The notes under the pieces: generated by a model
What the model saw: the letters and a program-made list of their open reading frames with translations, nothing else
Databases searched by the model: none
What the model was told of the DNA's origin: nothing
Part shown: in pieces, positions 35,883 through 49,210 of the stretch
Layout: every line of letters begins with the position of its first letter
Numbering within the stretch: the stretch's first letter is position 1
Program-made: the position numbers and the translations under genes
From: a virus
Taxonomy: Duplodnaviria; Heunggongvirae; Uroviricota; Caudoviricetes
Length of the DNA: 64,000 nt
IMG/VR virus record: IMGVR_UViG_2850796239_000011
Location: 1-64,000 of that record
Reading direction: 5' to 3' (one strand)

Positions 35883-36596
35883 TCACACCTGCCAGCCAGT
35901 AGCCTGAAACAGGCCCATTCTCGGGTGATACCAGCGGGTACCACGCTGAACGGCACCACACATCATGTGATGAAACGCCTTCAGAAACGGTTCCACAGCA
36001 ACAATTTCACGACGTGCCAGTAATCCATCTGGCGTCAAAAATTCATGAGTGTCTGTCGGGATGTTGTATGCATTTACAAGCGTGCGACATTTCGCATCTG
36101 ACATACCGGTTTTTGCTTTCAGCTGGCGATATCCGGCATAGCCCTCACGAATGGTACCCTTTTTGATTTGCTCAACTGTTTCGGCAACATGGCTGACTTT
36201 TTCTTCCACCTGAGTGATCCGTTTCTGCTGGCGAACGGCTTCAAGAGCCATCGCGGCAACCATTTCGATTTCGCTCATTGGCTTACGGATCTGTTCTTCC
36301 AGTTCGCGCCAGCGATCTACCAGGCGAGCAGTGAATTCAGGACAGAGCTGTGCGACGACAATGATACTGTCGCGCTTACCTTGTTCTCCTTCAAACAGGT
36401 AATGCTCATATTGAACTTTAAAACCTAAGTTATTGATTCTTTCGGAAACCTCAATTTGAGGAGACCGGACAACGCCACCTTTGGCTAATGTTTCAATAGT
36501 GCGTTTCACATTGTCATGACGCTTACCCACCAGTTCTGCGATCTCAACGCTGGTCATGGATGCTTTGTCGTTAAAAATTGCGGTGTTCACTGCCAT
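35883..36596 (-). CDS. Rha-family phage regulatory protein
   Basis: N-terminus 'MAVNTAIF...MTSVEIAELVGKRHDNVKRTIETL'; ORF trimmed to this Met. Confidence 0.75.
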   Translation of the reverse strand: MAVNTAIFNDKASMTSVEIAELVGKRHDNVKRTIETLAKGGVVRSPQIEVSERINNLGFKVQYEHYLFEGEQGKRDSIIVVAQLCPEFTARLVDRWRELEEQIRKPMSEIEMVAAMALEAVRQQKRITQVEEKVSHVAETVEQIKKGTIREGYAGYRQLKAKTGMSDAKCRTLVNAYNIPTDTHEFLTPDGLLARREIVAVEPFLKAFHHMMCGAVQRGTRWYHPRMGLFQATGWQV

Positions 36597-36709
36597 CTCC
36601 TTACGGATAAATTCTTTTAAGATTCCGCACATTCGTACTTGTTGGTGCCGAACCTTCCTTCAGTTATCCTTTTGATCCCTATAAACAAAAGAACCAAAGG
36701 AGGTTCGAC

Positions 36710-37003
36710 ATGAAAGTTCAGGCCGTTGGTTTATTCTGGTTTCGCGATGCTATTCAGTATCATGAGTTCAAAAAGATTTTTACTGATGCAGATGTGCTCT
36801 CCGACAGTTACACCTAGTGGAAACACGACGCTGAAAAATTGATTAAGCGTGTCGAAAGAAGCGGGCAACGAGTTATTAAAGTTGAAGCGGATACAACCGA
36901 GTTCATCACCTGGTGTACAAGCGAAGGCATTGGACTCAATGCCAAAGGTAGAATGCAGTTCGCATCCTTTAAGGCTTACCAACAACTTCTCAGCGAACGC
37001 TAA
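36710..37003 (+). pseudogene. Small ORF with strong SD interrupted by an in-frame TAG at codon 36
   Basis: AAGGAGG 6 nt before ATG at 36710; 35 codons, TAG at 36815-36817, then 61 more in-frame codons to TAA at 37001; Lys/Glu-rich protein-like composition. Confidence 0.35.
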
Positions 37004-37073
37004 TGTGATTGGGGCAATCGAAATGGTTGCCCCATCGTATTTAATAGTTATTTTTTCGCTCATATCACCACCA

Positions 37074-37283
37074 TCACTTCTCATCCTCTGTGTGCGCTAA
37101 GCTTGGATGTGTATATGGAATGTTCGGATCCAGATGGCAGAGAATGGCAACATCCTCCGGAACGCCCCGCGTTTTCCACTTTCCAACTCCCTGACTACCA
37201 CGAGGCTTTCCTTTCTTTGGAAACCTGCGGCCAATAGCGGCATTGGTTTTAAATTGAGTTTTTAATATTTCATAAAGGGTCAT
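37074..37283 (-). CDS. Cro-like early regulator (putative)
   Basis: 69-aa ORF divergent from cI with ~110-bp operator-like intergenic region; assignment by position. Confidence 0.45.
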   Translation of the reverse strand: MTLYEILKTQFKTNAAIGRRFPKKGKPRGSQGVGKWKTRGVPEDVAILCHLDPNIPYTHPSLAHTEDEK

Positions 37284-37394
37284 TCTTTAGCCTCACACCG
37301 GATACTCTGTTATCCAAGAATGTTAAACATGAGAATCCAAAGTATCAAGATATTCTGTTACTTTAGTATCAGCAGCCATGAAAGGAGAAGAAAA
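37284..37394. promoter_or_regulatory. Immunity-region operator/promoter region (PR/PRM-like)
   Basis: Minus strand TTGATA-N17-TAACAT toward cro; repeated 'AGTATCA'/'ACTTTAGT' motifs; plus-strand RBS AAAGGAG before cI. Confidence 0.4.
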
Positions 37395-38051
37395 ATGAAA
37401 TCTTTAGGTGAACGCCTAATCAACGCACGACAAAAAGCTGGGTTAACGCAAGATGCGTTGGCTAAAAAAGCAGGGGTCACCAGAGTTGCAATCAGTAAAG
37501 CCGAGCAAGGCCTTACAAAAAGTTTCAACGGTGACACCCTTTTTAAAGTCGCAGCTGCACTGCAGTGTTCACCGCAGTGGCTTCAGAACGGAGATGAGAA
37601 AGGTAAGCATTGGGAAAATAATGTTAAGAGTTGCCCCCAGAGGGACACAGCACACTCTTACCCTGTAATTAACTGGGTTCAGGCAGGATTATTCACAACT
37701 GCAGGTGATGACTACAACATGTATGATCAGGATAACTGGAGGCATTCTGTAAAATACGCTGGTGAGAGGGGGTTCTGGCTGGAAGTGCACGGAGACTCAA
37801 TGACTTCGCCTATAGGAATAACATTTCCTGAAGGAATGTCGATCCTTGTCAACCCAGATAAAGAAGTTTTTTCAGGGTGTTACGTCATTGCCAGAAAAAA
37901 ATCCACCAATGAAGCAACATTCAAAAAATATATTTCTGAAATGGGAAAGGCGTTTCTAAAGCCCCTTAATCCACAATACCCAATCATAGAAATGGACAAT
38001 GATTGCGAAATAGTAGGCGTTGTGGTTGATGCCAGATGGGATATTTTCTGA
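37395..38051 (+). CDS. cI: CI-like repressor (HTH-XRE + S24 LexA-like peptidase domain)
   Basis: N-terminal HTH ('LTQDALAKKAGVTRVAISKAEQG'), C-terminal S24-like domain with 'HGDSM'. Confidence 0.85.
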   Translation: MKSLGERLINARQKAGLTQDALAKKAGVTRVAISKAEQGLTKSFNGDTLFKVAAALQCSPQWLQNGDEKGKHWENNVKSCPQRDTAHSYPVINWVQAGLFTTAGDDYNMYDQDNWRHSVKYAGERGFWLEVHGDSMTSPIGITFPEGMSILVNPDKEVFSGCYVIARKKSTNEATFKKYISEMGKAFLKPLNPQYPIIEMDNDCEIVGVVVDARWDIF

Positions 38052-38078
38052 CCAGATACAAAATACAAAAAGAAACCT

Positions 38079-38122
38079 AAGTATCAAAAACACTTGCAAC
38101 ACCTTGATACTTTAGTTACCAT
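38079..38122 (+). promoter_or_regulatory. Candidate PL/OL: inverted repeat overlapping a sigma70-like promoter
   Basis: 'AAGTATCAA'-N16-'TTGATACTT' inverted repeat (38079-38112); TTGCAA-N17-TACCAT oriented toward the 38154 gene. Confidence 0.35.
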
Positions 38123-38153
38123 AAAACAAAGTTCGTAACTGAGGTATCATCTC

Positions 38154-38603
38154 ATGATCAATAAAGCTACAACTCTTGACTGTCTCGAAGAACTGAAAAA
38201 CCTCGGCAGCCTCATTACACTAATAGCAAAAGCAACGGCAGATGCTACGCTCTCTAGCGATATAGAGTCATGCGCAGGACTGGCATGGGATATGACAAAT
38301 AGCATATCCAGAAAGCTATCGTCAGCAATGCTTTTACAGAACAAAAATTCTGCAATCAACAACCGCCTTCGCACCCAACGCGAAGCCTGCGGCTTAACAA
38401 CAGCCGAACTCGCCAGGCTGCTCGATCTCGATGAAGAAATTATCATCCAGTGGGAGAGCGGAGAGTATGAACCAACTATCAGTATGCTTATCCCACTGGC
38501 AAATATTCTTGGCTGCGATCCGATGTGGCTGTTAACTGGTGAGGTTACTCCTCCGGAGCAACCAAAAAGTGAGGAGCAGCAACACCATGACGCATCTCAA
38601 TAA
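38154..38603 (+). CDS. HTH-XRE domain protein, first gene of early-left operon
   Basis: 149 aa; C-terminal HTH 'LTTAELARLLDLDEEIIIQWESGEYEPT'. Confidence 0.55.
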   Translation: MINKATTLDCLEELKNLGSLITLIAKATADATLSSDIESCAGLAWDMTNSISRKLSSAMLLQNKNSAINNRLRTQREACGLTTAELARLLDLDEEIIIQWESGEYEPTISMLIPLANILGCDPMWLLTGEVTPPEQPKSEEQQHHDASQ

Positions 38604-38785
38604 GTTTGCCCCTTATCTCGCGAAGCTCTTCTACGGAAGAACCAATACCAATGGTGACATAATCGCCGCTTCGGCCCTCAAGGTACATGCGAACATTTTT
38701 ATCAATCATTGCGGAAACAGTCTCAATATGAAAACACTTCTGAGACTCGCTATATAGCAGAACATATAAGTCAGCTGAGGAAGCC

Positions 38786-39151
38786 ATGAAAAAGTTCGAA
38801 AACATAACTGTTCTCCATGTTGATGACTTTGATTATACAAACCCGGAACTTCTCCCGGAGGTTGTAAAGGCAATAGATGTTGCCGATATAGTGATTAGAG
38901 GAAAGAGAATTGTCAAAAACAGGCTCGCATGCACTTCAGGAGCAATGACAGAAACAACCTCACAGCAAGATAATTACGAAGGCATTTGTCTGGAGCCTGA
39001 TTCATTTGCGGTAAATGTTTATCATTTATTGCATGCAACACAGGTATTACATATGTCCAGTAACCTCGTAACGAAAGCACTTGGCAGCGATATTCTGGAC
39101 TTTGCATGTGAGTATTCAAAAGCTGCTGCCGAAAAAGAATTAGCGCAATAA
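38786..39151 (+). CDS. Hypothetical protein
   Basis: 121-aa ORF with RBS GAGGAAG upstream of ATG 38786. Confidence 0.4.
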   Translation: MKKFENITVLHVDDFDYTNPELLPEVVKAIDVADIVIRGKRIVKNRLACTSGAMTETTSQQDNYEGICLEPDSFAVNVYHLLHATQVLHMSSNLVTKALGSDILDFACEYSKAAAEKELAQ

Positions 39152-39346
39152 CAACAAATATGCCCTGAACGTTTATTGCGGTTTTATCACCGGGGATTGT
39201 TACAACCTTAATCCACAGGAGGCTTTATTATGACTTTTATAAAGAATATGGCATCACACAAGACCGCCAGCCTTATTGCACAATACGGTGAAAATTACAT
39301 GCATATTGCCTGCTTATTTCTGCGTAAAGCATACGGGAAATAACAA

Positions 39347-39706
39347 ATGACACATGAACCCATTAATACATATCGTCGCCGTATAGCTGTTGCGGCACTC
39401 CATCGAATAAAACGTAAAACAGGTGGTGATCTGCTTATTGTTGACCTTCTGGATGGGAACATTACGACCATAGAAATAACAGAACAGTTTATAAACCAGT
39501 TGCTGTTGCGCTTTGAAGGTATTACCCGTGGTGAATTGGGTCGAGTGGAGGGTGAAACAGAAATCCGAACTGCATACCAGAATGCTATCGGGATTAATCA
39601 ACATACTGAATACCAGGCTGAAACCGGAAAGTTAATTATAGACAACCTTTTACAAGAGGTTATTGATTACGCGAAAGAAAAATATATCAGAGGAGGAATT
39701 AACTGA
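39347..39706 (+). CDS. Hypothetical protein
   Basis: 119-aa ORF; no family recognised. Confidence 0.35.
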   Translation: MTHEPINTYRRRIAVAALHRIKRKTGGDLLIVDLLDGNITTIEITEQFINQLLLRFEGITRGELGRVEGETEIRTAYQNAIGINQHTEYQAETGKLIIDNLLQEVIDYAKEKYIRGGIN

Positions 39707-39793
39707 TGGCTAATTTATCCCCTGTATCTGTTGTGCACGAAAAAGTGCAGTGAGGTGTACTGGCAATAGCGGACACTACCATTTGTTCTTTTT

Positions 39794-40612
39794 TTAAGCA
39801 GCCATCTGATGATATTTTTCCCTGAAGGCTGCCGGGGAGATATTCCCCAGACGAGAGTGACGACGCTGACGATTGTAGAAAATCTCAATGTATTCCCGTA
39901 TTACTGAGATGGCTTCATCCCGGTTATTAAAACGATAGTGGCTCAGGCTCTCATTTTTCAGCGTTCCCCAGAAGCTTTCCATCGGAGCGTTGTCGTAACA
40001 GTTACCTTTACGCGACATTGATGTTTTCAGACCAGACTGCTCCTGTATGACCCGGTAATCGTATGCGCAGTACTGTGAACCTCGATCAGAGTGGTGGATT
40101 AGCCCGGCAGGTGGGCGCTGGCTCCTGAGCGCCATAAACAGGGCTTTACCTGTCAGCTCTTTTGTCATGCGCTCTCCCATGGCGTAGCCGACAATTTCGC
40201 ACGTATAAACATCTTTGATGCCAGCGAGGTACAACCATCCCTCCTGTGTGGCAACATACGTCAGGTCCGCCACCCAGACCTGATTTGGTGCTGTAGGAGC
40301 GAACGTCTGGTTCAGCAGATTTGGCGCAACTGGCAGATTGTGGTTCGGGTTCGTAGTCGCTCTGAACTTGCGTTTCTGCTTACAGCGTAGCCTTAGCTCC
40401 TTACGAAGACGTGCCAGTCGGTCACGACCAACGATGATGCCATTCTCTGCCAGCTCCGTCTGGAGCCGCCGGGTTCCATATGTTTCGCGAGTGCGGATAT
40501 GTGCCACCTTAATCTCCAGTTTTAGCCGCTCATCACTTTGTTTTCTGTCTGAGGGTTCATGCTGTACCCAGTTGTAATAACCGCTCCTGGATACACCAAA
40601 TACCTGACACAT
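39794..40612 (-). CDS. IS600 transposase OrfB (DDE integrase domain)
   Basis: 272 aa IS3-family OrfB. Confidence 0.9.
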   Translation of the reverse strand: MCQVFGVSRSGYYNWVQHEPSDRKQSDERLKLEIKVAHIRTRETYGTRRLQTELAENGIIVGRDRLARLRKELRLRCKQKRKFRATTNPNHNLPVAPNLLNQTFAPTAPNQVWVADLTYVATQEGWLYLAGIKDVYTCEIVGYAMGERMTKELTGKALFMALRSQRPPAGLIHHSDRGSQYCAYDYRVIQEQSGLKTSMSRKGNCYDNAPMESFWGTLKNESLSHYRFNNRDEAISVIREYIEIFYNRQRRHSRLGNISPAAFREKYHQMAA

Positions 40613-40647
40613 CGCTTCAATGGGAAATTGTTGTCGCCATTGTTCGA

Positions 40648-40950
40648 TTAACGCGTATTTTTCAGCGACTCCTGTGCAAAATACGCTGTTGCTTTTTTTA
40701 ATATATCTCGCTCAAGGCGAGCTTCATTTAACGCCTTACGCAGTTGCAGAATTTCAGATTCCAGTTCAGCCACCGTGCGGGAACCAGGAGTACCGAGCCC
40801 TTTTCTGGCGGCGGTAACCCATTGTCCTAAAGTGCCTTCAGGAAGGGATAATCGGGAAGCGCCTTCACTGATCGAAAGTTGATTTTCAAGAACCGTTCTG
40901 ACAGCTTCGGCTTTGAACTCTTTAGAGTAACGTTGGGTTTTTCTGCTCAT
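40648..40950 (-). CDS. IS600 OrfA (HTH)
   Basis: 100 aa 'MSRKTQRYSKEFKAEAVRTVLENQLSISEGASRLSLPEG'. Confidence 0.9.
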   Translation of the reverse strand: MSRKTQRYSKEFKAEAVRTVLENQLSISEGASRLSLPEGTLGQWVTAARKGLGTPGSRTVAELESEILQLRKALNEARLERDILKKATAYFAQESLKNTR

Positions 40951-41159
40951 TATTAGCTCCTTCTGATGCCATTCTATTTCAGGAAGGAGTGTCCGTTAAA
41001 CTCAGGCTACCTCACAGATCGTTATGACAATTGAAAATGGCCAGGTAACAGATGTCTGCAAAGTCCGCGATGGAGAGCTGATTGCCAGCATGGATACATT
41101 CATACGGCTGGCAGAAAGAGCGGGGTATCAGATAACAGCACCTGCTCAGGAGGAAACCA

Positions 41160-41378
41160 GTGACATTAACAGCAACACGAATTCCTGAGTGGGTCCACCA
41201 GCAGGCGTTGCTGGTCCTGCGGCGGTACAGATGCCGACGTATATTCCCGCATCGGATACAGCGCAACGGATATCTCAGTCTGAAGGTTAACCGTCGCTGG
41301 CGGCTGTTATCGAAAGACGACGGCCGGAACTGGGAAGTAATGAGTCATGAACGTTATTCGGGGGAAATAAAGAAATGA
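41160..41378 (+). CDS. Hypothetical small basic protein
   Basis: 72-aa ORF in early-left cargo region. Confidence 0.3.
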   Translation: MTLTATRIPEWVHQQALLVLRRYRCRRIFPHRIQRNGYLSLKVNRRWRLLSKDDGRNWEVMSHERYSGEIKK

Positions 41379-41522
41379 TCGACAACCGCACCGCCAGCGC
41401 CATTGACCAGGCATTACAGAAACATGATACACCCGTCGGCCCGTTATTTTTTGTAACACGCCACGGAAGAACAAAAAAAATGCCTCACCCGAAAAACGGC
41501 AATTCGTTACCTGGCATTCTTT

Positions 41523-41768
41523 ATGACCACCCGCGCTTTTGAACGTTCAGGATTCCGACAACGCCATCCTGACAAGCGTTTTATCTTCAACGGGAATGAG
41601 ATATGGAAACGTGGAGAATCAACCACAGAGTATACCCGCGCACACCAGCGAACAATCAGACGACTGCGCAGACTCATCGCCAGGAAACAGTATACAGAAA
41701 AATGGTTCAGAAAATATGACACATGGAGCGCCGGATATTACGAACTGATGGCAACAAAACCATTCTGA
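41523..41768 (+). CDS. Hypothetical small basic protein
   Basis: 81-aa ORF; overlaps another frame. Confidence 0.3.
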   Translation: MTTRAFERSGFRQRHPDKRFIFNGNEIWKRGESTTEYTRAHQRTIRRLRRLIARKQYTEKWFRKYDTWSAGYYELMATKPF

Positions 41769-41828
41769 CGTAAACGAAATTAACCATGACGCAATTAAAT
41801 AAGGCAAGCCGAATACATCAGGAGGACC

Positions 41829-42017
41829 ATGAACATTTATTTCAGAATAGTTATATCACTGGCAATTATCGCATGTATTTACGGATTAATCGTTCCGGCC
41901 CTCATATCAATGAAGGATACGGTAGCAGTGATTTCTGGCTTTGCTCTGGCGTGTCTGACCCCGCCCTGCATTTATGCCATTTATAAGGGTCTTTCTTTCC
42001 CCGGGAGGGAAAAATGA
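41829..42017 (+). CDS. Small membrane protein (two predicted TM helices)
   Basis: 62 aa, hydrophobic; ATGA-coupled to the SPFH lipoprotein gene. Confidence 0.35.
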   Translation: MNIYFRIVISLAIIACIYGLIVPALISMKDTVAVISGFALACLTPPCIYAIYKGLSFPGREK

Positions 42018-42242
42018 AAAAAACAATTGCGCTTGTTTTCGCGGTCAGTCTGGCTGTCTTCGGACTTGTAGGTTGCGATCGCGTTGAACCAGGTAATGTG
42101 GGTATCAAAGTCAACAAACTGGGCGACGACAAAGGTGTCGGTGAAGTGGTCGGTGTTGGTCGCTACTGGACTGGCTGGAATACTGAAGTGAACCGCCCCG
42201 GGAATCCTGGAGACTAAACTTCCTGAGAAAGAGGTAAACAGG

Positions 42243-42568
42243 ATGACTAAAAATACTCGTTTTTCCCCGAAGTCCGTCAGAGGGCGATTCGTATGGTTCT
42301 GGAAAGTCAGGGCGAATATGACTCACAGTGGGCGGCAATTTGTTCCATTGCCCCAAAGATTGGCTGTACACCGGAGACTCTGCGTGTCCGGGTACGCCAG
42401 CATGAGCGGGATACCGGAGGCGGTGATGGCGGGCTCACCACCGCTGAACGTCAGCGTCTGAAAGAGCTGGAACGTGAAAATCGTGAACTGCGCCGCAGTA
42501 ACGATATCCTTCGCCAGGCTTCCGCTTATTTTGCGAAGGCGGAGTTCGACCGCCTCTGGAAAAAATAA
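42243..42568 (+). pseudogene. IS629 orfA with 1-nt deletion
   Basis: Starts 'MTKNTRFSP' then shifts frame; the in-frame remainder is the 42293-42568 ORF; 'CCGAAG' where 'CCGGAAG' is expected. Confidence 0.7.
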
Positions 42569-43455
42569 TGCCACTGCTGGATAAGCTGCGTGAGCAGTAC
42601 GGGGTCGGACCGCTATGCAGCGAACTGCATATTGCCCCGTCAACGTATTACCACTGTCAGCAACAGCGACATCATCCGGATAAACGCAGTGCCCGTGCGC
42701 AGCGCGATGAGTGGCTGAAGAAAGAGATACAGCGCGTATACGATGAAAATCACAAGGTATACGGTGTGCGTAAAGTCTGGCGTCAGTTGTTACGGGAAGG
42801 TATCAGAGTGGCCAGATGCACTGTGGCACGTCTCATGGCGGTTATGGGACTTGCCGGTGTTCTCCGGGGTAAAAAGGTCCGTACGACCATCAGCCGGAAA
42901 GCCGTTGCCGCAGGCGACCGCGTAAACCGTCAGTTCGTGGCAGAACGACCTGACCAGCTGTGGGTGGCTGATTTTACTTACGTCAGCACATGGCAGGGCT
43001 TCGTCTATGTGGCGTTCATCATTGATGTGTTTGCCGGATACATCGTGGGGTGGCGGGTCTCATCGTCCATGGACACGACATTCGTGCTGGATGCACTGGA
43101 GCAGGCGTTATGGGCCCGTCGACCGTCCGGCACGGTCCATCACAGTGATAAAGGTTCTCAGTATGTATCGCTGGGCTACACACAGCGGCTTAAGGAAGCC
43201 GGATTACTGGCATCAACAGGAAGTACAGGCGACTCGTATGACAACGCGATGGCGGAGAGCATCAATGGTCTTTACAAAGCGGAGGTAATACACCGTAAGA
43301 GCTGGAAAAACCGTGCAGAAGTGGAACTGGCCACACTCACGTGGGTGGACTGGTATAACAATCGACGATTGCTGGAAAGGCTGGGCCATACTCCTCCGGC
43401 AGAAGCAGAAAAAGCTTATTATGCTTCCATCGGAAACGATGATCTGGCAGCCTGA
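42568..43455 (+). CDS. IS629 transposase OrfB
   Basis: 295 aa IS3-family DDE transposase. Confidence 0.85.
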   Translation: MPLLDKLREQYGVGPLCSELHIAPSTYYHCQQQRHHPDKRSARAQRDEWLKKEIQRVYDENHKVYGVRKVWRQLLREGIRVARCTVARLMAVMGLAGVLRGKKVRTTISRKAVAAGDRVNRQFVAERPDQLWVADFTYVSTWQGFVYVAFIIDVFAGYIVGWRVSSSMDTTFVLDALEQALWARRPSGTVHHSDKGSQYVSLGYTQRLKEAGLLASTGSTGDSYDNAMAESINGLYKAEVIHRKSWKNRAEVELATLTWVDWYNNRRLLERLGHTPPAEAEKAYYASIGNDDLAA

Positions 43456-44191
43456 GTTCACAGATAAAACACTCTCCAGGAAAACCGGGGCGGTTCAGAA
43501 GTTTACATTTTCCCGACCTTCAAGCAAATGAAGACCTACGATGAACCGTTCAGTTTCCAGATGAGTGACGGCACAACCATCGGCTATCACATCGGCGTGG
43601 CCTACAAAGTTGATCCATCCAAAGTTACCACAGTCTTTCAGACTTACCGCAAAGGCGTGGATGACATTACCGACACTGACCTGCGCCAGAAAATTGCCGA
43701 CGCACTCAATCGGCTGGCCAGCAAAATGACCACTGACAAATTTATCGACGGCGGCAAGTCTGAACTACTGGATGCCGCACTTAAAGACATTCAGGAAGAG
43801 ATGACACCCATCGGCATTCAGGTAATGAGCCTCTCTTATGTAGGTAAACCGGAATACCCTCCAACCGTTATCGACAGCATTAACGCCAAAGTCACGGCAA
43901 ACCAGAAAACCCTGCAGCGCGAACAGGAAGTCAAGCAACGTGAAGCGGAGGCCAACATGCTACGTGCGGAAGCTGCCGGACAGGCTGATGCCATTCGAAC
44001 AAAAGCCCAGGCAGAAGCCGATGCCATTCGTTTACGCGGCGAAGCTCTACGCCAGAACCCAGGCGTCATGGAGCTGGAAGCCATCAACAAGTGGAACGGT
44101 ACACTGCCGCAATACATGACCAGTGGTGCCAATACACCATTTATCCAGATTAAATAACTTATATGCCCGGCAGGCCGCCGGGCTAAGGGAA

Positions 44192-44518
44192 ATGCAGATG
44201 AACACCCAGAATACTCAACCGCAAATAATGAACTATGACCCGAATCTGACGTCATGCGGACGCATGGCAAAACAAACCGTTCGATTAACTTTCGGACTAT
44301 GGGAATACCGCGAAACATTCGAAGTTACTGTCGGCGGCAATCTGACCGGACTGGATGTTATCAGTTGCGCTATTGAAAGCCTGTACGCAACGCTGCCTTA
44401 TGAAGAAGTCGAGGATGAGCGCACAGGGGAAACAGATATCATGGCCACCATTAATATTGGCGAACTGATATGTCAGGATGAAGACCTGTCCGGAGAGCTC
44501 TGGCTTGCCGGGATGCTT
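44192..44518 (+). pseudogene. Hypothetical gene whose 3' end is interrupted by IS600 copy 2
   Basis: ORF stop is supplied by the first bases of the IS; the original reading frame resumes after the IS at 45786 and ends at 45836. Confidence 0.4.
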
Positions 44519-44581
44519 TGAGGTAGCCTGAGTTTAACGGACACTCCTTCCTGAAATAGAATGGCATCAGAAGGAGCTAAT

Positions 44582-44884
44582 AATGAGCAGAAAAACCCAA
44601 CGTTACTCTAAAGAGTTCAAAGCCGAAGCTGTCAGAACGGTTCTTGAAAATTAACTTTCGATCAGTGAAGGCGCTTCCCGATTATCCCTTCCTGAAGGCA
44701 CTTTAGGACAATGGGTTACCGCCGCCAGAAAAGGGCTCGGTACTCCTGGTTCCCGCACGGTGGCTGAACTGGAATCTGAAATTCTGCAACTGCGTAAGGC
44801 GTTAAATGAAGCTCGCCTTGAGCGAGATATATTAAAAAAAGCAACAGCGTATTTTGCACAGGAGTCGCTGAAAAATACGCGTTA
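44582..44884 (+). pseudogene. IS600 orfA with premature stop (Gln24 to stop)
   Basis: Identical to copy 1 orfA except CAA to TAA at 44651-44653. Confidence 0.7.
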
Positions 44885-44920
44885 ATCGAACAATGGCGAC
44901 AACAATTTCCCATTGAAGCG

Positions 44921-45739
44921 ATGTGTCAGGTATTTGGTGTATCCAGGAGCGGTTATTACAACTGGGTACAGCATGAACCCTCAGACAGAAAACAAAGTGA
45001 TGAGCGGCTAAAACTGGAGATTAAGGTGGCACATATCCGCACTCGCGAAACATATGGAACCCGGCGGCTCCAGACGGAGCTGGCAGAGAATGGCATCATC
45101 GTTGGTCGTGACCGACTGGCACGTCTTCGTAAGGAGCTAAGGCTACGCTGTAAGCAGAAACGCAAGTTCAGAGCGACTACGAACTCGAACCACAATCTGC
45201 CAGTTGCGCCAAATCTGCTGAACCAGACGTTCGCTCCTACAGCACCAAATCAGGTCTGGGTGGCGGACCTGACGTATGTTGCCACACAGGAGGGATGGTT
45301 GTACCTCGCTGGCATCAAAGATGTTTATACGTGCGAAATTGTCGGCTACGCCATGGGAGAGCGCATGACAAAAGAGCTGACAGGTAAAGCCCTGTTTATG
45401 GCGCTCAGGAGCCAGCGCCCACCTGCCGGGCTAATCCACCACTCTGATCGAGGTTCACAGTACTGCGCATACGATTACCGGGTCATACAGGAGCAGTTTG
45501 GTCTGAAAACATCAATGTCGCGTAAAGGTAACTGTTACGACAACGCTCCGATGGAAAGCTTCTGGGGAACGCTGAAAAATGAGAGCCTGAGCCACTATCG
45601 TTTTAATAACCGGGATGAAGCCATCTCAGTAATACGGGAATACATTGAGATTTTCTACAATCGTCAGCGTCGTCACTCTCGTCTGGGGAATATCTCCCCG
45701 GCAGCCTTCAGGGAAAAATATCATCAGATGGCTGCTTAA
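44921..45739 (+). CDS. IS600 transposase OrfB
   Basis: 272 aa, two substitutions relative to copy 1. Confidence 0.9.
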   Translation: MCQVFGVSRSGYYNWVQHEPSDRKQSDERLKLEIKVAHIRTRETYGTRRLQTELAENGIIVGRDRLARLRKELRLRCKQKRKFRATTNSNHNLPVAPNLLNQTFAPTAPNQVWVADLTYVATQEGWLYLAGIKDVYTCEIVGYAMGERMTKELTGKALFMALRSQRPPAGLIHHSDRGSQYCAYDYRVIQEQFGLKTSMSRKGNCYDNAPMESFWGTLKNESLSHYRFNNRDEAISVIREYIEIFYNRQRRHSRLGNISPAAFREKYHQMAA

Positions 45740-45867
45740 AAAAAGAACAAATGGTAGTGTCCGCTATTGCCAGTACACCTCACTTATCTCAGCAGAAATT
45801 ATCAGTATTGAACCCGCTACAAACATACGGCTCTGAAGTTCTCACTATTCAGAGAGCAGGAGAAAAA

Positions 45868-46110
45868 ATGTTCGCTTTGATTAATCAGGGACAACTGTAT
45901 ACCGACAGTGCCGGTTACCCGGTAAAAATTATTCGCTGCATAAACAACACTGTGTTGTACAGAAGAATGGATGGGCGAACACAGTCAGTAAAAATAAACG
46001 ATTTCAATGAACTGTTTGAACGGATCGATCACCAGGAATACCGACAAATTCTGGCAGAAACAGAGCAGGAAGCTCATCTGAAAAAATTACGGGCCATGAA
46101 AAGGAAGTAA
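45868..46110 (+). CDS. Hypothetical protein upstream of xis
   Basis: 80 aa from 'MFALINQGQLY'; RBS GGAGA upstream. Confidence 0.4.
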   Translation: MFALINQGQLYTDSAGYPVKIIRCINNTVLYRRMDGRTQSVKINDFNELFERIDHQEYRQILAETEQEAHLKKLRAMKRK

Positions 46111-46268
46111 AGAATGAATAAAGCGTTTGAGCTATGGGTACGCCAGCGTTACGGCAATCGCTATGACCTGACGCGAGATGTTGACGGTTTCTACTGTCGT
46201 GAAATTGTGAAACGAATGTTTGAAGTGTGGTGCCACTGCCGTGGGCTGAGTGTTGTGTGAGGTAATGC

Positions 46269-46505
46269 ATGGGCAATGTGATTCAACTGGCTCCCAATGA
46301 ATGGGTTTGTGAAAGCGTTCTTATCGCAATTACCGGGCTCAAACCAGGCACAATTCTCCGAGCCCGGAAAGAATGCTGGATGGTAGGAAGAGAGTATATT
46401 CACGTATCACCAGACGGTAATCCAAAGCCATCCAGCGAATGTATGTATAACAGAAAAGCAATAGATGCCTGGGTCTCTTCAATGAAAAACAAACAACCTG
46501 GGTGA
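46269..46505 (+). CDS. xis: Excisionase-like protein (putative)
   Basis: 78-aa ORF immediately upstream of the integrase gene. Confidence 0.5.
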   Translation: MGNVIQLAPNEWVCESVLIAITGLKPGTILRARKECWMVGREYIHVSPDGNPKPSSECMYNRKAIDAWVSSMKNKQPG

Positions 46506-46560
46506 TTTAATGCCATGAAGTATGTAAGCTCGTATCGCTCTTGGGCGTCTGGAGGTATCA

Positions 46561-47874
46561 ATGGATAAAGTCAAATATCCAACAGGCGTCGAAAACCACG
46601 GTGGCACATTACGCATCTGGTTTAATTTTAAAGGTAAACGTGTCAGGGAAAATCTTGGTGTCCCTGACACTGCCAAGAACAGGAAGATCGCCGGAGAGCT
46701 GCGGACATCTGTATGTTTTGCCATTCGTACAGGAAATTTTGATTATGCTGCGCAGTTCCCTGACTCTCCTAACCTCAAGGCTTTTGGGGTAAATAAAAAA
46801 GAAATTACGGTGAAAGAACTTGAAGAAAAATGGCTGGATCTGAAACGAATGGAAATCTCTGCAAATGCATTCAATCGCTATGAATCCATTGCAAGGATGA
46901 TGGTTCCGAAGATTGGTGGCAACCGACTGGTATCAGCAGTGACCAAAGAGGAATTGCTGTATATCAGGAAAGATTTGCTGACCGGATACCAAAATCCAAC
47001 AAAAGGTAAAGCTCCAGTAAAAGGACGAAGCGTTGTCACAGTAAATTATTACATGACAACAATCGCTGGAATGTTTCAGTTTGCTGCAGATCACGGTTAC
47101 ATAGAAGCAAATCCCTTCGAGGGAATTAAGCCTCTTAAAAGAGCCAGGGCAGAACCAGATCCGCTAACTCGTGACGAATTTATTCGCCTGATAGATGCTT
47201 GCCGGCATCAGCAGACAAAAAACCTGTGGTCATTGGCTGTGTACACAGGAATGCGTCATGGTGAACTGGTCTCCCTGGCCTGGGAAGATATCGATCTGAA
47301 AGCAGGAACAATTACTATCAGGCGCAATTATACGAAACTCGGTGAGTTCACTCTACCTAAAACTGAAGCAAGTACAAACAGGGTTGTGCATCTTATCCAG
47401 CCCGCTATCAGTGTCCTGAAAAATCAGGCTGAAATGACAAGACTGGGTAAGCAGCACAACATCAAGGTTCAACTACGTGAATATGGACGTTCAGTAAATC
47501 ATGAATGTACTTTCGTATTTAACCCCCAGGTGGTTAGAAAAAGCAAACAGGTAGGTTTTATCTACAAGGTAGATTCCATTGGCGACTCATGGGAAACAGC
47601 CATTAAACGTGCAGGCATCAGGCATCGAAAGGCATACCAGTCACGACACACTTATGCGTGCTGGTCATTATCTGCCGGAGCAAATCCAAGCTTCATTGCC
47701 AGCCAGATGGGGCATGCAAGTGCCCAGATGGTGTTCAATGTATACGGAGCATGGATGACTGACAGCAATGCAGAACAGATCGCAATGCTGAATCAGAAGC
47801 TGGCAGATTATGTCCCAATGATGTCCCATGGTCACCAAAGTGACACAAGAGGCTTATTAAAATCAGTGAGTTAG
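46561..47874 (+). CDS. int: Tyrosine integrase
   Basis: 437 aa; catalytic region with conserved Arg...His-x-x-Arg...Tyr pattern ('HTYACW...AQMVFNVYGAW'). Confidence 0.9.
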   Translation: MDKVKYPTGVENHGGTLRIWFNFKGKRVRENLGVPDTAKNRKIAGELRTSVCFAIRTGNFDYAAQFPDSPNLKAFGVNKKEITVKELEEKWLDLKRMEISANAFNRYESIARMMVPKIGGNRLVSAVTKEELLYIRKDLLTGYQNPTKGKAPVKGRSVVTVNYYMTTIAGMFQFAADHGYIEANPFEGIKPLKRARAEPDPLTRDEFIRLIDACRHQQTKNLWSLAVYTGMRHGELVSLAWEDIDLKAGTITIRRNYTKLGEFTLPKTEASTNRVVHLIQPAISVLKNQAEMTRLGKQHNIKVQLREYGRSVNHECTFVFNPQVVRKSKQVGFIYKVDSIGDSWETAIKRAGIRHRKAYQSRHTYACWSLSAGANPSFIASQMGHASAQMVFNVYGAWMTDSNAEQIAMLNQKLADYVPMMSHGHQSDTRGLLKSVS

Positions 47875-47977
47875 CTTTTAATACCCGTCATGTTAACTGT
47901 TAATGAGGGCATTGAGTCGGGGGCTGGCAGCATACTGCGCAAGCACAGTGGCAGCCACATTCTGCACGTTATGCCTC

Positions 47978-49210
47978 CTAGAGTTTCACACTGATATCCG
48001 ACACATCCAGAACCGGAATCTCATCTATCCCGAAAGTGACAGCCGTTGTCCATGACGAACCGTCACGGCTCACAGTAAGGCCCAGAATATCAATATGTTC
48101 CGGATCGGTTTTGTAAATGCCGGCATAGTAGCGCCCGGCAGAGACAACAGAGGCAACCCTTGCCCGCAGACCACCATCTGTACCATTAAATGCGTCCAGC
48201 ACGGATTGCTGTACCTGTCGGGTAATATCTGAAGGCAGGTAGTCACTTTTTTTCAGCGTCACACTGACATGCAGACTGACGGGTTTGAGTGTCTGCCAGC
48301 TGATCACGTATTCAGGATACGGCGGATCGTACTCCTTATCTGCAACAGTGAACGTTGTGTTGCCATTCATATCAATACCCGGCGGAGCCTTACGCCAGAT
48401 GGCCGCCGCGATATCTGCCGGGCTGCCGCCGTACACGCCAACATAAAGCGAACCGGGTGTTAATGGATACTGACTGACTCCGGCTTTTTGTTCTGTTTTT
48501 TTCGGATTATGGGTGACGTAAACATCCACCACGTTTTCTACCGTGGAGAGTATTTCACCCCGGATGGCTTCCAGAATATTCCGGGCATTACGGGCAACTG
48601 AATTACGTCGGCGGTTTTCAAAGTCCGCACGGGTTTCCTCATCGCTGCCCGGCACACCGGCACTGGCGTTAGTGACACCTGACCAGCCAGGTATTGCCTT
48701 ATAAATTTTATTCAGCGTCCCCACAGGACAGCCGACGGGGCCGGTGGACAAATTCAGAAATACCGCATCAACCTGCCCTGATGCGCCGATAGTGACGTCT
48801 GACTGACTGACATACTTATAACCGGCCTCATCCTGCGCCATACTGCCCGCCGGGATCAGCGTGCCAACCAGCCCGGTACAGGTCGCTGTTACTGTCGTAC
48901 CTGTGGCCCCGCGGCGCTCCAGGAAATAAATCCTGCCTATTGCATCCTGAAAGCGACCACTGGAAAAGTCAGGGTTGATCTGGTTAACGATATACAGCAA
49001 CTGGTCGTTTTTATCCGCAATAATGGCGCTTTCGCTGGATGCAAGTTGTCCCTGCGGACTGCTCAGACTGGTACTCATGGCCCCGCCCAGCGCCGCCGAA
49101 AAATCAGCAAGCCTGCCGCTCAGAATATCCGCTTCATCCGGCACATTCAGCCCGCGATCCGAAATCTGTACAGCGGGCACTGCGGTAGAAAAAGATTTAT
49201 TTTCACTCAT
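47978..49210 (-). CDS. Baseplate J-like protein (myovirus-type prophage remnant)
   Basis: 410-aa ORF following GP46-like and spike genes; last gene before the lambdoid int end. Confidence 0.65.
   Translation of the reverse strand: MSENKSFSTAVPAVQISDRGLNVPDEADILSGRLADFSAALGGAMSTSLSSPQGQLASSESAIIADKNDQLLYIVNQINPDFSSGRFQDAIGRIYFLERRGATGTTVTATCTGLVGTLIPAGSMAQDEAGYKYVSQSDVTIGASGQVDAVFLNLSTGPVGCPVGTLNKIYKAIPGWSGVTNASAGVPGSDEETRADFENRRRNSVARNARNILEAIRGEILSTVENVVDVYVTHNPKKTEQKAGVSQYPLTPGSLYVGVYGGSPADIAAAIWRKAPPGIDMNGNTTFTVADKEYDPPYPEYVISWQTLKPVSLHVSVTLKKSDYLPSDITRQVQQSVLDAFNGTDGGLRARVASVVSAGRYYAGIYKTDPEHIDILGLTVSRDGSSWTTAVTFGIDEIPVLDVSDISVKL

Follow-up and report, generated by a model that had tools for sequence, protein, structure and literature searches.

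IS629 is a member of the IS3 family, with isoforms IS1203 and IS3411, and is catalogued in Shigella sonnei and Escherichia coli O157. Its target duplications are 3-4 bp long, and 62% of the O157 copies are located in prophages (PMC3271280). Shigella is rich in pseudogenes produced by insertion sequences (PMC7373316). Among phage genes, L05 of phage phiP27 belongs to a family of proteins with an SPFH domain. In the MbpV-MbpS pair of Kayvirus a small transmembrane (TM) protein is followed, in overlapping genes, by an SPFH protein (PMC7150955), and PM0222, encoded by a prophage island of Pasteurella multocida, is an HflK/C-like SPFH protein that is reported to occur in outer-membrane vesicles and to be a virulence factor (PMC9872710).

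The window analysed here, a stretch of 64,000 nucleotides identical to chromosome CP026875.1, carries a lambdoid prophage in which an IS629-type element lies within an SPFH gene. In its left arm (int, xis, ..., SPFH, ..., cI) this prophage is similar to phiP27. The features of the locus are:

41829-42017, + strand: small membrane protein ORF with two TM segments, 62 aa, intact (phrog_1130, PHROG E 1.9e-23)
42014-42188, + strand: 5' part of the SPFH lipoprotein gene; signal peptide, LVGC, Cys21, native codons 1-58 and base 1 of codon 59
42185-42188, no strand: left copy of the target-site duplication GAAG, which occurs only once at the empty site of the related locus L002
42189-43497, + strand: 1309-bp IS629-type element of the IS3 family, reading in the direction of the gene that it interrupts
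42243-42568, + strand: IS629 orfA (HTH_Tnp_1), out of frame past codon 9
42523-42639, + strand: ALIL pseudoknot (Rfam RF01497), intact; it stimulates the programmed -1 frameshift in this IS3 subgroup
42568-43455, + strand: IS629 orfB (DDE/rve transposase domain), open and intact
43498-43501, no strand: right copy of the target-site duplication GAAG
43502-44157, + strand: 3' part of the SPFH gene; remainder of codon 59 through codon 276 and the stop

Structure of the insertion

A sequence-only reading of the window had proposed that IS629 splits a single SPFH-domain lipoprotein gene with a 4-bp duplication, and that the two halves join in frame once 1309 bp and one GAAG are taken out. When we deleted the element and one GAAG in silico, an open frame of 831 nt was indeed restored, encoding 276 aa without an internal stop. 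Most of the other deletion registers that we tried contained 8-13 stops; one further register, in which the element and 1 nt are removed, is also open and adds a Glu that is absent from the intact alleles. The empty site itself is found in E. coli FDAARGOS_944, where the sequence reads ...AATACTGAAGTTTACATT..., with GAAG present once, and the protein runs ...WNTEVYIFP... over the predicted junction. No coding sequence was lost at the insertion, native codons 59-67 being located at 43502-43527. The terminal inverted repeats of the element (42189-42213 and 43473-43497) are 25 nt long and 88% complementary. A 1310-bp element that begins one base earlier and is flanked by a 3-bp GAA duplication is formally possible, but is less likely because the canonical copies start with TGAACCG.

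The fragments also align to single contiguous homologues. The 5' part is 100% identical to positions 8515-8690 of L002, and the 3' part shows 98.7-99.0% nucleotide identity to the intact alleles, with seven synonymous differences and one non-synonymous difference. A search with the restored protein gave Pfam Band_7 (PF01145) at 108.3 bits, against a gathering score of 23.6 (E 6e-31). The match covers residues 23-209 and profile positions 2-176 of 176, and so spans the junction; the same protein belongs to phrog_200 (E 7e-115). The intact alleles that the first reading had suggested looking for in related prophages were found in FDAARGOS_944 and in CP026836.1, which holds the same prophage in another strain with an uninterrupted allele identical at 275 of 276 positions. 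An exact database look-up of the restored 276-aa sequence returned no match, because the nearest intact allele differs by D116N. The related IMG/VR loci include intact alleles at 100% identity.

Insertion sequences in general make assembly harder, and this is all that speaks for the idea that the two fragments are unrelated and lie in frame by chance, or that the element was misplaced through mis-assembly of a repeat. We regard that idea as exceedingly improbable, since intact alleles cross the junction end to end at 99-100% identity, 14 contigs drawn from independent short-read and long-read assemblies encode the same peptide across the junction, and the element is flanked by a perfect 4-bp duplication. 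We found nothing that speaks against the insertion itself, and are almost certain that a Shigella-type IS629 landed at codon 58/59 of the SPFH gene, an accessory gene of the prophage, duplicating its GAAG target and inactivating the gene. The locus is a case of ordinary IS-mediated pseudogenisation.

Each half still contains an open frame. The N-terminal ORF (42014-42217) consists of 58 native residues followed by 9 residues (VNRPGNPGD) from the left end of the element, and the lipobox LVGC that had been noticed in it is present at residues 18-21. This stub may still be produced, in its mature form a lipopeptide of 46 residues. The 3' part encodes the larger share of the SPFH domain, along with the long coiled-coil helix and a conserved C-terminal KWNG..LP motif; its 209-aa ORF (43528-44157) begins at native Met68 and has neither a signal peptide nor a visible ribosome-binding site. 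Both fragments are already present in public records.

The IS629 copy and its lineage

The element shows 99.5% identity to 1310-bp copies from E. coli and 96.6% identity to the copies of E. coli O103:H2 12009, which carry the label 'IS3 family'. The orfB product gave a Pfam rve match (E 4.6e-28) together with HTH_21 and rve_3, and differs from that of the closest copy by two amino acids. The ALIL pseudoknot scores 119 bits against Rfam RF01497 (E 2.8e-31). The closest 1310-bp copies differ from the window element by one indel, C5 to C4 at 42265-42268, so that the 1-nt deletion in orfA that had been reported from the letters alone is present in the window sequence. Downstream of it, an internal ATG at 42293 opens a truncated ORF of 91 aa, which matches HTH_Tnp_1 at 21.5 bits, below the gathering score of 24.1. 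With orfA frameshifted, this copy would be left without OrfA or OrfAB transposase and would be movable only with help in trans.

The deletion is private to the window's own assembly, so that it arose recently or else is an assembly error in a homopolymer. If the consensus of this long-read-style complete assembly is wrong at the run, the copy is intact and autonomous, and we give this explanation a substantial chance, somewhat short of even. All six other assemblies that carry the insertion and cover the site have C5, S. boydii ATCC 9905 among them despite showing otherwise zero mismatches over the 2144-nt region, and all of the closest database copies are 1310 bp long. On the other hand, differences in homopolymer length nearby (an A-run near 41473 and T near 41597) are common to the window and to the independent ATCC 9905 draft, so the assembly is not obviously error-prone here, and single-base slippage in homopolymer runs is a frequent genuine mutation. 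Before the orfA frameshift serves as a marker, it ought to be verified in the reads.

The insertion itself is real and inherited, as its junction is common to at least eight assemblies, with S. boydii ATCC 9905 among them. An exact match to the 67-aa hybrid product turns up in 14 contigs, and in the related loci L004-L006 the alignment is unbroken through both junctions. The source names of the sister assemblies are Shigella boydii or E. coli. One of these relatives, L005, has IS629 and lacks both of the nearby IS600 copies. Relatives without the two IS600 copies already have IS629, so that in the assemblies compared IS629 was the first of the three elements to insert. Together with the later IS600 insertions, the shared junction yields lineage markers whose order is known.

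The gene has been damaged elsewhere too. In FDAARGOS_944 its last codons are clipped by IS600, and in O103:H2 12009 only a frameshifted remnant is present; this independent damage argues against strong selection for the gene in lysogens. Both the IS element and the SPFH gene family are already known in public records, and the window adds another IS-made pseudogene in an IS-rich prophage of the Shigella lineage, which is of little significance in itself. At most, the dead copy could be used as a naturally occurring knockout, to be set beside sister strains in which the gene is intact.

The SPFH lipoprotein and its upstream partner

We infer that the intact gene encoded a predicted lipoprotein of 276 aa. 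Its signal peptide and lipobox, MKKTIALVFAVSLAVFGLVG-C, fit the pattern [LVI][ASTVI][GAS]C, and the lipobox Cys is conserved in all of 10 diverse phage homologues and in 17 of 19 close ones. The AF2 monomer model (pLDDT 77.5) shows an SPFH fold followed by a long helix at residues 179-243, and Foldseek returned prohibitin, erlin, HflK/C, stomatin, flotillin and QmcA with probability 1.0. The family goes by several names: PHROG 200 is labelled 'lipoprotein' and RefSeq uses 'SPFH domain-containing protein'. GenBank entries for phiP27 L05, Stx2a phages, RCS47 and the 67-aa fragment call it a serine protease, and this inherited annotation is all that favours such an activity. Since Pfam finds Band_7 and nothing else over the entire restored protein, all the fold matches are SPFH scaffolds and NCBIfam returns no protease family, we give a protease virtually no credence; the label is unsupported and the family should be named SPFH lipoprotein.

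The position assigned to the gene in the early-left region is borne out, as it lies between a CI-like repressor and xis-int on the same strand, a location equivalent to the leftward operon of lambda. The accompanying remark that such phage proteins are uncommon does not survive a count: members of PHROG 200 are present in 689 of 50,697 phage genomes, in 388 of 5,426 complete E. coli genomes and in at least 452 IMG/VR contigs. The family is common in strictly virulent phages (N4-like, Vequintavirinae, Kayvirus).

Directly upstream, the stop of the 62-aa ORF overlaps the SPFH start codon (ATGA). This small protein has two hydrophobic segments on the Kyte-Doolittle scale. An NfeD-like identity for it was considered and rejected, as Pfam finds no family in the ORF. 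The matches to phrog_1130 (E 1.9e-23) and phrog_200 (E 7e-115) are adjacent and on the same strand. We examined the synteny of the pair in 10 diverse and 80 close loci, using tblastn with the small proteins for the IMG/VR loci. In phiP27, RCS47, Cyrano, VEc25, Paxi and others a homologue of the ORF immediately precedes the SPFH gene, as it does in 77 of the 80 IMG/VR loci, although the search for related loci with the diverse alignment gave close relatives only (91-100%), which do not count as independent evidence of linkage. This arrangement suggests that the SPFH gene and the coupled small ORF form a conserved two-gene cassette. A scan for promoters and terminators over 36500-48000 gave counts at or below the shuffle expectation and no signal beside the cassette, so a self-contained 'moron' transcription unit cannot be argued for.

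The LVGC lipobox with Asp at +2, together with the coupling to a helical partner with two TM segments, argue for a location on the periplasmic side of the inner membrane, even if inner-membrane retention by Asp at +2 can be weakened by the residue at +3, here Arg. Because an SPFH domain followed by a 65-residue helix is the fold of ring and cage formers (HflK/C, prohibitin, stomatin, erlin, QmcA), the protein may have assembled into an oligomeric dome over a patch of inner membrane that holds the small partner. It is conceivable, if less than likely, that phrog_1130 and phrog_200 constitute a conserved, translationally coupled cassette that builds such a dome against the outer surface of the cytoplasmic membrane and has a specific role in infection, the cassette being spread among temperate as well as virulent phages whose hosts are Gram-negative or, for more distant members, Gram-positive. 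If so, that role might be, for example, to block DNA entry by superinfecting phages or to capture a host membrane protease.

The literature that we searched contains no functional experiments on phage members of the family, only annotation-level remarks and speculation, and a scan of the restored protein against PADLOC-DB 2.0 matched no defence family at E <= 0.01. Our best guess, a tentative one, is that the protein protected the envelope of the infected or lysogenic cell from incoming phage, that is, superinfection exclusion. Modulation of FtsH ranks second, and we consider it rather improbable. According to that proposal the protein mimics HflK/C, caging or binding FtsH on its periplasmic side, and so tunes the stability of CII/CIII-type proteins and the choice between lysis and lysogeny, as a positional analogue of lambda cIII. 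HflK is the closest solved relative by sequence (E 2e-4), the weak NCBIfam matches are to HflC and HflK, the predicted topology faces the periplasm as in HflK/C, the gene sits in the leftward operon, and the same HflK/C-FtsH speculation has been published for Pseudomonas phages (PMC8540360). However, the scores fall far under the equivalog cut-offs, there is one SPFH gene instead of a K/C pair, a predicted lipid anchor replaces the TM helix, and the fold is equally near to prohibitin, erlin and stomatin. What is more, the virulent phages in which the family is common face no lysogeny decision.

Comparison with known systems

The window element shares with IS629 the 1310-bp length class, the TGAACCG... 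termini, the imperfect 25-nt inverted repeats, orfA (HTH) and orfB (rve/DDE), as well as the ALIL frameshift pseudoknot, the 3-4 bp target duplication and the preference for prophage targets. It differs in being 1309 bp long with a frameshifted orfA, and among the E. coli copies used for the comparison its sequence diverges by about 3.4% from the O103/O157-type copies.

With the HflK/HflC-FtsH complex of E. coli (PDB 7VHP, 7WI3, 9CZ2) the restored protein shares the SPFH domain and long helix, a predicted location on the periplasmic side and an N-terminal anchor (Foldseek probability 1.0, E ~1e-13, identity 16-18%). It differs in its predicted lipid anchor, its single gene and a family-specific C-terminal AIxKW(N/D)GxLP motif. 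Membership of HflK/C was considered and rejected: the NCBIfam scores are 25.4 against a cut-off of 134.4 bits for HflC and 23.3 against 159.4 bits for HflK, and the architecture is that of one SPFH gene with a lipobox whose neighbour encodes a 62-aa protein with two TM segments. The SPFH-NfeD operons (QmcA-YbbJ, PDB 8Z5G) have the same two-gene layout of a small membrane protein and an SPFH protein. Here, however, the partner is 62 aa long, without an NfeD/OB-fold domain or Pfam match, and whereas QmcA faces the cytoplasm the restored lipoprotein would have to face the periplasm.

By its published description, PM0222 resembles it in being a prophage-encoded SPFH protein. MbpS of Kayvirus is a distant homologue (24.6% identity by tblastn against phage A3R; 23% in alignment A3), and its pair has the same order, small TM protein first. 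That pair differs in its Gram-positive host, in the single TM segment and charged tail of MbpV, and in its location near lysis genes. The L05 product of phiP27 is 95% identical to the restored protein, and its gene has the same position between repressor and xis-int and the same small membrane ORF upstream. The phiP27 record leaves that ORF unannotated and labels L05 a serine protease, and it is in the window that the gene is interrupted.

The split gene and its uninterrupted alleles

We read positions 41700-44500 of the window together with the ORF list. The IS element spans 42189-43497 (1309 bp), ends in 25-nt imperfect inverted repeats (TGAACCGCCCCGG...) and has GAAG directly outside both its left and right ends. 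When the element and one GAAG were deleted, an 831-nt ORF of 276 codons resulted. The other deletion registers tested mostly contained 8-13 stops; one further open register, removal of the IS plus 1 nt, gives an extra Glu absent from intact alleles. The 67-aa ORF preceding the IS is a hybrid of 58 native residues and 9 from the IS end. Native codons 59-67 follow the IS, ahead of the ATG that opens the 209-aa ORF, and the coding sequence is complete.

Features of the region (window coordinates; IS3-family-type and 209-aa ORFs from the ORF list and sequence reading)
37395-38051, plus: CI-like repressor
39751-41014, minus: IS600 copy 1, duplication CAG; splits a 71-aa Rem-like ORF
41829-42017: intact 62-aa ORF with two hydrophobic segments; phrog_1130 ("membrane protein", E 1.9e-23)
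42014-42217: 67-aa ORF, starts MKKTIALVFAVSLAVFGLVGC
42243-42568 region: IS3-family-type ORF 1
42568-43455: IS3-family-type ORF 2
43528-44157: 209-aa ORF
44519-45782, plus: IS600 copy 2, duplication CTT; splits the DUF5406 gene at codon 107/123
46269-46505, plus: xis
46561-47874, plus: int

The sequence-only reading held that the IS splits one gene whose fragments join in frame, and uninterrupted alleles do run across the junction. In E. coli FDAARGOS_944, whose prophage is 99% identical to the window across the region, the gene crosses the site as ...AATACTGAAGTTTACATT..., with GAAG once (protein ...WNTEVYIFP...), and loses its last eight codons to IS600 (L002, NZ_CP065613.1 9316-10584). CP026836.1 carries, in the same prophage and adjoining yecE/DUF72, a full 276-aa allele identical at 275/276 residues (D116N); IMG/VR contigs hold alleles 100% identical to it. 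Both the FDAARGOS_944 and CP026836.1 genes are single, contiguous homologues of the two fragments. The window gene differs from the CP026836.1 allele at 8 nucleotides, and since seven of these are synonymous (one is non-synonymous) and all cluster within codons 102-140, they look like allelic variation rather than decay following insertion. Directly after the SPFH stop lies a GC-rich hairpin (GCCCGGC AGGCC GCCGGGC, 44158-44197) with no T-run, on which the terminator scan made no call.

Age of the insertion and its prophage setting

Window positions 36014-48217 match CP026875.1 4228855-4241058 exactly. The exact 67-aa hybrid product occurs on 14 contigs, including those of Shigella boydii ATCC 9905 (AERN01000089) and an NCTC assembly (UGFN01000001), and alignment is contiguous through the left and right junctions in loci L004-L006 from other assemblies. 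This junction on 14 contigs, together with the contiguous intact alleles, bears out the earlier observation and its main interpretation. The two IS600 copies are 1264 bp each, 3 mismatches apart, with 3-bp duplications. Because the ATCC 9905 contig has IS629 without either flanking IS600 copy, the comparison indicates that IS629 inserted first and the IS600 insertions came later in the window's lineage. Together with IS629, this brings the number of IS elements within 6 kb to three.

Compared with 1310-bp copies on E. coli plasmids, the IS copy shows 99.5% identity, and with those of O103:H2 strain 12009 96.6%, in keeping with the 4-5% divergence of IS629 subtypes; IS629 generates 3-4 bp duplications, and 62% of the O157 copies are in prophages (PMC3271280). 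Its orfB is intact, as are the two inverted repeats and the ALIL frameshift pseudoknot (RF01497, 119 bits). The 1-nt deletion previously noticed in orfA is present in the window: C5 has become C4 at 42265-42268, the sole length difference from the closest IS copies, so that the OrfA reading frame is lost beyond codon 9. All six other assemblies with the insertion and coverage of the site have C5, so the lesion is private to the window's assembly. A true recent mutation is its probable origin, and a homopolymer consensus error is a serious possibility.

The structural genes of the prophage are lambda-like (mEp460/PhiR40-type), and its left arm has the gene order of phiP27: CI-like repressor, CII-like HTH protein, several small ORFs, the 62-aa ORF and SPFH gene, DUF5406, DUF4222, xis and int. 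Given this order, the plus strand of all these genes and their divergence from the cro/Rha/replication genes, the term "early-left region" is fair as a statement of position only; the promoter scan identified no promoter for the region. Upstream, a 72-aa ORF (41160-41378, phrog_1525), flagged ParE_like (PF24732) in the Pfam hits of sister loci, may be a toxin-like gene of the leftward operon. Two overlapping ORFs at 41375-41768 correspond to a single 123-130 aa ORF in CP026836.1 and a draft relative. Against that intact version, the A-run near 41473 differs in length and one T is added near 41597; the ATCC 9905 draft has both changes too, so they are probably real. Right after int, at about 47899 (47897-47900), the lambdoid prophage adjoins a second prophage of a different, myovirus-like type (Baseplate_J, DUF3383, DUF2213, lytic transglycosylase), which runs on to 64000 and takes the place of the yecE/DUF72 gene of relatives; tandem prophages or an attachment-site rearrangement are possible.

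The SPFH lipoprotein and its probable membrane partner

In the restored protein, residues 23-209, which span the junction, match Pfam Band_7 (SPFH) at 108 bits, and residues 1-275 match phrog_200 ("lipoprotein") at E 7e-115. The small PHROGs 21428 and 38808 cover no more of it than the N- and C-terminal ends and, for that reason, probably derive from separately clustered truncated copies. HflK/HflC models match weakly (25 bits vs cut-offs of 134-159), and a PADLOC search gave zero matches. In the AF2 model (mean pLDDT 77.5) an SPFH alpha/beta domain is followed by a single 65-residue helix, and Foldseek matched prohibitin, erlin, HflK/C, stomatin, flotillin and QmcA with probability 1.0 at 14-18% identity; the predicted fold is a generic dome-forming SPFH scaffold of no particular subfamily. 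GenBank and PHROG annotation often gives products of the family the label "serine protease" (phiP27 L05, Stx2a phages LC5678xx, RCS47, EFW53324.1), and for some phages "transposase" or "transferase"; a protease domain could not be detected.

The 62-aa ORF and the SPFH start overlap in the sequence ATGA. At the same position, and usually overlapping the SPFH start, a small membrane ORF is found in phiP27, RCS47 (P1-like), Cyrano, VEc25 (N4-like), Paxi (Schitoviridae), phiBt-TXDOH (Burkholderia), SA22 (Pseudomonas) and Kayvirus A3R (MbpV-MbpS); the records of phiP27 and RCS47 leave it unannotated. Among ten diverse loci only NINP13076 is without such an ORF, and it is present in 77 of 80 IMG/VR loci, all close relatives. 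Since phages of many unrelated types have a comparable small membrane ORF ahead of the SPFH gene, the pair looks like a conserved two-gene cassette, hitherto unrecognised.

Ten phage homologues, with identity down to 23%, all keep the lipobox Cys, which is followed by Asp in most enterobacterial members. In Lol sorting, an Asp at +2 favours retention in the inner membrane, a signal that the Arg at +3 of the restored protein might weaken. Because a helical 2-TM protein such as the partner has to reside in the inner membrane, placement of the lipoprotein there, facing the periplasm, gains support. In proteins P0128 and P0134, which come from P1-like phage-plasmid contigs (~110-250 kb), Tyr replaces the lipobox Cys (IIGYDRVEP), so these copies cannot be lipid-modified; the allele is widespread (175 and 23 contigs, respectively) and otherwise well conserved.

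Abundance, possible role and decay

The gene had been called uncommon, a claim contradicted by its counts. Homologues were found by tblastn in 689 of 50,697 phage records (hosts include Staphylococcus, Pseudomonas, Enterococcus, Erwinia, Klebsiella and Escherichia), alleles of at least 80% nucleotide identity in 388 of 5,426 complete E. coli genomes (in 363 of the 388, 80% or more of the gene is contiguous), and relatives on at least 452 IMG/VR contigs.

The literature searched gave no experimental function for phage SPFH members. Why the gene occurs in phage genomes "remains unclear" (PMC13239085); an HflK/C-like role in lysogeny has been speculated, strictly lytic phages also carrying the gene (PMC8540360), as has an aid to Sec-dependent export (PMC7150955). 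PMC9872710 describes an HflK/C-like protein from a Pasteurella prophage as a virulence factor carried in vesicles. From its structure, the intact protein would form a lipid-anchored, periplasm-facing SPFH oligomer above the 2-TM partner. We tentatively propose superinfection exclusion as a possible role and rank it above the improbable FtsH modulation, because the family is common to virulent and temperate phages and because the VEc25 SPFH gene adjoins an annotated exclusion gene.

O103:H2 12009 (L001, NC_013353.1 6515-8571) retains only a frameshifted SPFH remnant; IS629 lies within its neighbouring DUF5406 gene. At least three independent events have damaged the SPFH gene: IS629 in the window, IS600 in FDAARGOS_944 and the frameshift in 12009. 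This argues against a strong benefit to lysogens. The significance of the window locus is low, as it adds little beyond what is ordinary in Shigella, where 22-50% of the several hundred pseudogenes are due to IS insertions (PMC7373316); the IS629-split SPFH gene is one more such IS-made pseudogene.
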